Shown one piece after another: positions 27,494-28,803 of a stretch of DNA of 64,000 nt (positions are counted from its first letter, which is position 1; every line of letters starts with the position of its first letter). The translations under genes and the position numbers were made by a program. The notes under the pieces are model-generated. The model ran no database searches and was not told the origin of the DNA. It was given only the letters and a program-made list of their open reading frames with translations. This DNA is from Escherichia coli (GTDB taxonomy: Bacteria; Pseudomonadota; Gammaproteobacteria; Enterobacterales; Enterobacteriaceae). The stretch is from the NCBI RefSeq assembly GCF_051903065.1, contig NZ_CP178438.1, one strand, 5' to 3'.

Positions 27494-28558
27494 ATGGAAC
27501 ATTTCGACGTGGCGATTATTGGCCTCGGCCCGGTAGGGTCGGCGTTGGCGCGAAAGTTAGCAGGCAAAATGCAGGTGATCGCGCTGGATAAAAAGCACCA
27601 GTGTGGTACTGAAGGTTTCAGCAAACCCTGCGGCGGTCTGCTGGCACCGGACGCGCAGCGATCTTTTATTCGCGATGGACTGACGCTTCCTGTCGATGTG
27701 ATCGCTAATCCGCAGATTTTCAGCGTCAAAACCGTCGACGTCGCCGCATCGCTCACGCGTAACTACCAGCGAAGCTATATCAATATTAATCGCCATGCTT
27801 TCGACTTGTGGATGAAATCGCTGATCCCCGCCAGCATTGAGGTTTACCACGATAGCCTGTGCCGGAAAATCTGGCGTGAGGATAATAAATGGCATGTCAT
27901 TTTTCGTGCAGACGGCTGGGAGCAGCATATTACCGCCCGCTATCTGGTCGGTGCCGATGGTGCCAACTCGATGGTGCGGCGACATCTCTACCCGGATCAT
28001 CAAATCCGTAAATATGTCGCAATCCAGCAGTGGTTCGCAGAGAAACATCCGGTGCCGTTCTACTCCTGCATCTTTGATAATGCGATAACTGACTGTTACT
28101 CATGGAGTATCAGCAAAGACGGTTATTTTATCTTTGGTGGTGCCTATCCAATGAAAGACGGTCAGACGCGTTTCGCGACGCTGAAAGAGAAAATGAGCGC
28201 CTTTCAGTTCCAGTTTGGCAAAGCGGTGAAAAGCGAAAAATGCACAGTGCTGTTTCCCTCACGCTGGCAGGATTTTATCTGCGGTAAGGACAACGCCTTT
28301 CTGATTGGTGAAGCGGCGGGATTTATCAGCGCCAGTTCGCTGGAGGGGATTAGCTATGCGCTGGATAGCGCAGAGATTCTGCGTGCGGTGTTCCTGAAAC
28401 AGCCGGAGAAGAGCAACGCCGCTTACTGGCGCGCCACCCGCAAACTGCGTTTAAAACTCTTCGGCAAGATAGTAAAAAGCCGATGCCTGACCGCACCGGC
28501 TTTAAGAAAGTGGATTATGCGCAGTGGTGTGGCACATATTCCACAGTTGAAGGATTAG
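27494..28558 (+). CDS. cbrA: FAD-dependent oxidoreductase
   Basis: N-terminal FAD dinucleotide-binding motif (GLGPVG); start at ATG 27494. Confidence 0.85.
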
Positions 28559-28671
28559 CCAACGCGCTTCACATCGCCCACCAGCAGGATGTAAGAGAGC
28601 GCGCCAATCAACGCGACGGCGGAGATATAAACCAGTGCCGGGGCAAAGCCATAGCCTTGCAACAGATATTA
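28555..28671 (-). pseudogene. dgoT: 3'-terminal remnant (about 38 codons) of an MFS transporter gene, probably dgoT; rest of the dgo operon absent
   Basis: Minus-strand frame ...[40 protein letters not shown], closed upstream by an in-frame stop; lies where dgoT is expected next to cbrA. Confidence 0.5.
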
Positions 28672-28803
28672 GTCCACAAAAAAACACCTCATAAGAAAAG
28701 GTCTTATATCGGGCAGAAATCTGAAAAGGGAGATCAGGCGCTAAACAGGAGGGAAAGAAGAGTATGCTTTCAACGGCTTAGCTACTCGTTTAAAGGATTA
28801 ATC

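Follow-up and report, generated by a model that had tools for sequence, protein, structure and literature searches.

An inherited deletion of the D-galactonate operon between cbrA and yidX in Escherichia coli

The 64,000-nucleotide stretch of Escherichia coli DNA analyzed here (the window) very probably carries an old, inherited deletion allele of dgoRKADT that arose in a single illegitimate-recombination event and was passed down the lineage containing O157:H7, O55:H7 and O145:H28. In K-12 this operon provides transport and catabolism of D-galactonate, and DgoR, a member of the GntR/FadR family, represses it via the operators IR1 and IR2 over the dgo promoter. In the course of events that we propose, an ancestor would have carried the operon between cbrA and yidX, as do K-12 and many Enterobacteriaceae. 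One illegitimate-recombination event would then have joined codon 394 of dgoT to the outer edge of IR1, about 140 bp upstream of dgoR, and would have removed 4,750 bp with no need for an IS element and with at most 1 nt of microhomology. It would have left behind a dead dgoT tail of 114 nt and a decaying piece of intergenic DNA, with cbrA and yidX intact, and the allele would afterwards have been inherited by the lineage of the three serotypes and the window strain. Such a deletion may have been neutral, or favoured where galactonate is not limiting.

Extent of the deletion and its flanking genes

The genes around the locus follow the order ibpB-ibpA-yidQ-yidR-cbrA-stub-yidX-yidA-yidB-gyrB, the stub being the 3' end of dgoT. 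An initial annotation, made from the window sequence, had expected the dgo genes of K-12 between cbrA and yidX and had proposed that a deletion of roughly 4-5 kb removed them. Comparison with K-12 MG1655 bears out both points. There the interval holds dgoT-dgoD-dgoA-dgoK-dgoR, and the window lacks 4,750 bp of it (NC_000913.3, about 3870552-3875301), so that the five genes are gone from the locus: 1,179 of the 1,293 nt of dgoT (91%) and the whole of dgoD, dgoA, dgoK and dgoR have been lost, together with the dgo promoter and the DgoR operators. When the K-12 proteins DgoD, DgoA, DgoK and DgoR were used as tblastn queries, no match was found anywhere in the 64-kb window. The parts of the locus that remain are listed in Table 1.

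Table 1. Features retained around the deletion, in positions of the window
Feature	Position	Strand	State and basis
cbrA (colicin M resistance FAD-dependent reductase)	27494-28558	plus	intact; ORF and PGAP annotation of a 100%-identical locus, 2195-3259 of its extract
dgoT 3' remnant	28555-28668	minus	37 sense codons and TAA stop, DgoT residues 394-430; tblastn and PGAP
Deletion junction	28660-28669	none	best placement 28668/28669; BLAST 28660/28662
Degenerate relic of distal dgoR-yidX intergenic DNA	28669-28708	none	just outside DgoR operator IR1
Conserved yidX upstream region	28709-28803	plus	kept by the deletion; 93/95 identical to K-12, 93/96 to E. albertii
yidX (putative lipoprotein)	28804-29460	plus	intact; 99.5% amino acid identity to K-12 YidX

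Both neighbors are well preserved. The window CbrA shares 96% amino acid identity with K-12 CbrA over 354 aa, and the ATG of yidX at 28804 lies 132 nt past the TAA that closes the stub, in keeping with the distance of about 130 bp first estimated. Each neighbor also varies in its own right. The stop codon of cbrA (28556-28558) is polymorphic: in O145:H28, E. albertii and some dgo+ strains TAG has become TAT, so that CbrA gains 12 codons that run into the 3' end of dgoT or into the stub, and cbrA measures 1,101 nt instead of 1,065 nt. YidX falls into deeply diverged allele classes, with amino acid identities to K-12 of about 60% for E. albertii, E. coli E69 and Escherichia sp. MOD1-EC7003, 77% for E. 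whittamii and 92% for Escherichia sp. E1V33; despite these diverged alleles, the 95 nt upstream of the yidX start are 97-98% conserved.

A dead dgoT tail that retains the marks of a coding sequence

The minus-strand fragment directly behind cbrA had been described as a 38-codon dgoT stub, and its alignment agrees with this. Residues 394-430 of K-12 DgoT match 28668-28558 with 36 of 37 identities (tblastn, E=1e-15), the C-terminus reads ...LVGDVKRVG in front of a TAA stop at 28555-28557, and the size corresponds to 37 sense codons plus the stop; in the list of open reading frames the fragment is limited to 28555-28662/28668 on the minus strand. Its convergent position has been kept as well: the stop codons of cbrA and the stub overlap by 4 nt, exactly as do cbrA and dgoT in K-12 (cbrA end 4442, dgoT start 4439, coordinates of the K-12 extract). 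The in-frame stop that was said to close the fragment upstream is likewise present, at a position to be corrected from about 28672 to a TAA at 28669-28671.

Only 8.8% of dgoT is left, and the remnant has no start codon, no promoter and none of the N-terminal 393 codons. Judged from its sequence, it is a pseudogene and not a functional dgoT, whose full length is about 430 aa. In ECNB21-M121, the closest complete genome, PGAP labels these 114 nt a pseudo 'hypothetical protein, missing N-terminus'. A promoter consensus scan of 28300-29000 returned one weak minus-strand match, located inside yidX, and no terminator, and an Rfam scan of 27000-30500 (E<=1) gave no match.

The way in which the remnant differs from K-12 is informative about its past. 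Eleven of the 114 nt differ from K-12 dgoT and nine of these differences fall on third codon positions, an excess with a binomial P of about 0.001, so the differences must mostly have been shaped in functional dgoT genes and not by decay after the deletion. They are also unevenly placed, since eight of the nine third-position differences crowd into the last 30 nt beside the junction; at the very end of the stub, from 28639 to 28657, all seven differences from K-12 are at third positions. The tail reads TAT CTG TTG CAA (YLLQ) where K-12 has TAC CTG GCG CAG (YLAQ), and the ...CCAGATA variant is also found in functional dgoT genes of several other genera.

The junction and the mechanism of deletion

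The initial annotation had recommended alignment to a reference dgo locus to locate the breakpoint and any microhomology. In the BLAST comparison with K-12 the left-hand homology ends at 28660 (K-12 3870543) and the right-hand homology begins at 28662 (K-12 3875297), the first 45 nt or so of the latter being poorly conserved. At the protein level the homology of the remnant continues to 28668, and the best breakpoint is therefore placed between 28668 and 28669, which corresponds to K-12 3870551 and 3875302 and to a loss of 4,750 bp. Divergence of the sequence close to the junction prevents placement to the exact base, and an alternative 4 nt to the left, with the same deletion length, would fit as well. 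Microhomology at the junction amounts to at most 1 nt. The DgoR operator IR1 has been defined as 5'-ATATTGTTGTACTACAATTTAG-3' (PMC12288454), and it ends exactly at the start of the retained DNA, TTAG at 28669-28672.

What kind of event could have produced such a junction? The simplest reading of the sequence is a single illegitimate end-joining or replication-slippage event, and a break or stall at the right breakpoint might have been promoted by the palindrome of the operator. That an IS element or longer direct repeats brought about the deletion, and that their traces have since eroded, appears improbable to us. IS1 is active in the lineage, with one copy in the window at 44524-45293 and others at different sites in the closest genome, and the DNA next to the junction is clearly mutated, both of which would suit such a mechanism. 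Against it, no IS sequence, IS end, target-site duplication or foreign DNA was found at or near the junction, and all of the DNA in the spacer between the stub and yidX has an alignable counterpart in K-12, either in dgoT or in the dgoR-yidX intergenic region. Moreover, no direct repeats of at least 5 nt occur in register at both breakpoints in the five undeleted references that were searched (K-12, TC_EC10, O157:H16, DEF10 and E. whittamii), and palindromes at the junction included nothing relevant. The original observation that no IS element or repeat is visible at the junction thus stands, and calling the mechanism unclear is still fair. One specific candidate, recombination between GGTACC in dgoT and GTAC in IR1, was rejected, because it would yield a product exceeding every observed junction by 7 nt.

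An allele shared by hundreds of genomes

The deletion had been described from this one strain. To see how widely it occurs, an 86-nt query spanning the junction was compared with 5,426 complete E. coli genomes at a threshold of at least 95% identity. The junction is present in 413 of them, and no other match exceeds 81%. Carriers include O157:H7, O55:H7 and O145:H28 as well as a mixed set of animal, food and wastewater isolates. The junction is base-identical in seven genomes sampled across serotypes and hosts, O157:H7, O55:H7, O145:H28, F2_81, A16 and strain 472 among them, and PGAP marks the stub as pseudo in each sampled carrier genome. The deletion itself is thus real, but with the identical junction in 413 of 5,426 genomes and a colinear version in other Escherichia it is no event of the window strain itself. 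The probability that the junction reflects a faulty assembly, or a deletion that the window strain alone acquired recently, is negligible, since the same junction recurs in 413 independently assembled complete genomes.

The distribution of the operon gives a matching picture. DNA of K-12 dgoD-dgoA-dgoK is present in 5,021 of the 5,426 complete genomes and absent from 405; there are eight more junction carriers than genomes without dgoDAK, and in a few of the carriers dgo DNA may be present at another site. The closest complete genome is that of ECNB21-M121, isolated from meat in China, which is 100% identical over the junction. The window strain is a close but distinct relative, as the positions of IS1 differ between the two.

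The serotypes O157:H7, O55:H7 and O145:H28 belong to phylogroup E. At their cbrA-yidX locus the junction sequence is identical to that of the window, and this shared allele, taken with the phylogroup membership of the three serotypes, would place the window strain in phylogroup E. It appears as a non-O157 relative of O157:H7 with a smaller genome. The stub of O157:H7 differs from that of the window at four third-codon positions (28639, 28642, 28645 and 28648), and these are the positions that vary among deletion carriers, all of them third positions. Genome comparisons from 2001 reportedly catalogued segments that are present in K-12 and absent from O157:H7. The dgo deletion is an inherited, lineage-wide and already catalogued allele that sits in hundreds of annotated public genomes. 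In a full-text literature search, no paper explicitly described the junction or reported that O157:H7 or E. albertii has lost dgo, and a gapped pattern fitting all 14 deletion-bearing loci compared gave 0 matches in JGI metagenome contigs. As a practical consequence, the cbrA-stub-yidX junction offers a simple and stable lineage marker, either by PCR or in silico.

Age of the allele and its history across species

Divergence from K-12 is confined to about 70 bp hugging the junction: over 28429-28638 the window is 100% identical to K-12. On the right, the patch 28669-28708 matches K-12 at 28 of 42 positions, which is lower than the 32 of 42 between K-12 and dgo+ Citrobacter. A haplotype from which the deletion could have arisen was sought among the 5,426 complete genomes, and none was found in a dgo+ genome; the stub end finds its best match at 93% and the right patch at 81%.

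A search of one genome per bacterial species with CbrA as query revealed the same architecture of cbrA, a dgoT stub that ends near codon 394, and yidX in three further records. Escherichia sp. E1V33 has the junction type of phylogroup E (E-type) and is 97.5% identical to the window across the junction. In the E. albertii type strain the stub also covers residues 394-430, and two conserved anchors lie 88 nt apart compared with 89 nt in the window. In Escherichia sp. MOD1-EC7003 they are 66 nt apart, a further 23 nt are missing, and most of cbrA is deleted. The literature searched contained nothing on the strains E1V33 and MOD1-EC7003. Additionally, dgo is missing from all 15 public contigs whose encoded YidX is exactly that of E. 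albertii. The three deletion haplotypes have the motif ACACCTC(A/C)TAAG in common on the right side of the junction, unlike dgo+ Escherichia, which have AACAAT(G/T/A)..

These observations may point to a history longer than that of phylogroup E, a possibility we raise tentatively. The deletion may be one ancient event common to E. albertii, cryptic Escherichia and E. coli phylogroup E. Its allele would either have passed from one of these groups to another through homologous recombination or have persisted over a long time as a presence/absence polymorphism; the sequences fit a single event of this kind, shared across species and followed by decay and by recombinational erosion of its flanks. 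A related possibility, to which we give about the same limited weight, is that the allele was imported from a divergent Escherichia lineage by homologous recombination, or is ancient and shared across species, and that recombination with dgo+ E. coli afterwards homogenised its flanks to within a few tens of bp of the junction. The colinear deletions in E1V33, E. albertii and MOD1-EC7003, the motif common to the three haplotypes and the missing pre-deletion haplotype in dgo+ complete E. coli all point this way. So do the abrupt passage from K-12-like sequence to divergence beside the junction and the stub-end differences, which, lying all at third codon positions, would have arisen in a functional, divergent dgoT.

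Other data speak against so old a common origin. Over the junction core of 19-23 nt, E. coli and E. albertii agree at no more than about 50-60% of positions, which leaves identity by descent unproven; the stub end of E. albertii is K-12-like rather than E-type; and relaxed constraint on a dead regulatory region alone can explain the diverged right patch. Independent deletions at nearly the same place are also compatible with the data. If the ancient origin is true, the roughly 70 bp of 28639-28708 would form an 'island of divergence' that records the age and source of the allele, and it would persist because recombination with dgo+ donors cannot erase it without restoring the operon.

Direction of change and recurrent loss

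In Citrobacter amalonaticus, C. youngae, C. sedlakii, Enterobacter sp. ENT03, Pseudocitrobacter vendiensis, Phytobacter massiliensis and Buttiauxella, dgo adjoins cbrA. This occurrence at the same position in other genera, together with the stub, indicates that presence of the operon is ancestral and its absence derived. The reverse polarity, with a short cbrA-yidX spacer as the ancestral state and insertion of dgo in other E. coli lineages, is very improbable. While the patchy occurrence of dgo beside cbrA across Enterobacteriaceae would agree with it, a site that had always been empty would hardly contain an in-frame, 114-nt C-terminal fragment of dgoT with synonymous-site variation, nor part of the intergenic DNA from the dgoR side, and the operon would not be expected at the same position in several other genera. 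In Superficieibacter, Phytobacter, Kosakonia and Enterobacter sp. BIGb0383, dgo flanks cbrA on its opposite side, in the yidR-cbrA interval; the position of the operon relative to cbrA has hence changed in enterobacterial evolution.

The operon has been damaged or lost in other ways as well. E. whittamii carries an internal dgoA-dgoK deletion (11622-11817 of its locus extract) and E. coli O157:H16 an internal stop in dgoK. An independent dgoT stub, about 85 nt long, is found in Citrobacter sp. MGH106 (9104-9190 of its locus extract); the left breakpoint of this stub lies about 22 nt nearer to the stop codon. No dgo is found between cbrA and yidX or yidA in E. coli E69 and many Citrobacter, Kosakonia and Pseudocitrobacter species. 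As the lesions and breakpoints differ, these are separate events of dgo loss. Recurrent loss across Enterobacteriaceae is what one usually sees with a dispensable catabolic operon, and the allele described here is an ordinary gene-loss polymorphism.

Further differences from K-12 in the window

The window departs from K-12 at several other sites. The IS1 copy at 44524-45293 has inserted in the tnaC-tnaA interval, about 30 nt ahead of the start of tnaA. Its sequence matches the annotated IS1A of ECNB21-M121 at 100% identity, a 9-bp target duplication (K-12 3888694-3888702) accompanies it, and it is missing from that site in the closest complete genome. Its position could uncouple tryptophanase from leader control and thereby affect the indole phenotype. 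In the mnmE-tnaC interval a 2.6-kb insertion relative to K-12 (41557-44164) contains a type III effector gene of the ShET2/EspL2 family, which is uninterrupted in the window and split by IS1 in ECNB21-M121. At 54034-61465, 7.4 kb replace cbrB-cbrC-yieK-yieL-bglHBFG of K-12 (9.4 kb); the annotation of the closest genome assigns type III effector genes to this segment, a frameshifted espY4 among them, and the part at 57639-58775 is present in the window where ECNB21-M121 has IS1. Two smaller differences are about 490 bp of extra sequence at 19010-19503 in the glvG region, glvG being a pseudogene in K-12, and the absence at 63058-63065 of about 85 bp of the K-12 pstB-pstA intergenic region (3908466-3908551).

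Consequences for galactonate use and comparison with the K-12 operon

Since transporter, dehydratase, kinase, aldolase and regulator are all gone, the pathway cannot run from this locus, and carriers are predicted to be incapable of D-galactonate transport and catabolism through DgoT, DgoD, DgoK and DgoA encoded here. Published phenotypes can be set beside this prediction. Phylogroup E showed a mean growth yield on D-galactonic acid lactone of 0.40, compared with 0.82-1.01 in A/B1, B2 and D (Sabarly et al. 2011, Table 1, PMC3147056), and a study from 2025 described some isolates without structural dgo genes (PMC12288454). The deletion would account for poor or absent use of D-galactonate in the lineage that contains O157:H7. 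With respect to ecology, evolution in the mouse gut repeatedly selects loss-of-function mutations in dgoR (PMC7064181), and galactonate therefore appears to be a limiting gut nutrient for dgo+ E. coli. If so, a lineage without the operon would occupy a different nutrient niche.

The system against which the locus is best read is dgoRKADT of K-12. Both occupy the same chromosomal site between cbrA and yidX, and the window keeps the last 37 codons of dgoT and the yidX-proximal intergenic DNA. It differs from the K-12 locus in having neither the five genes, nor their promoter, nor either of the two operators.
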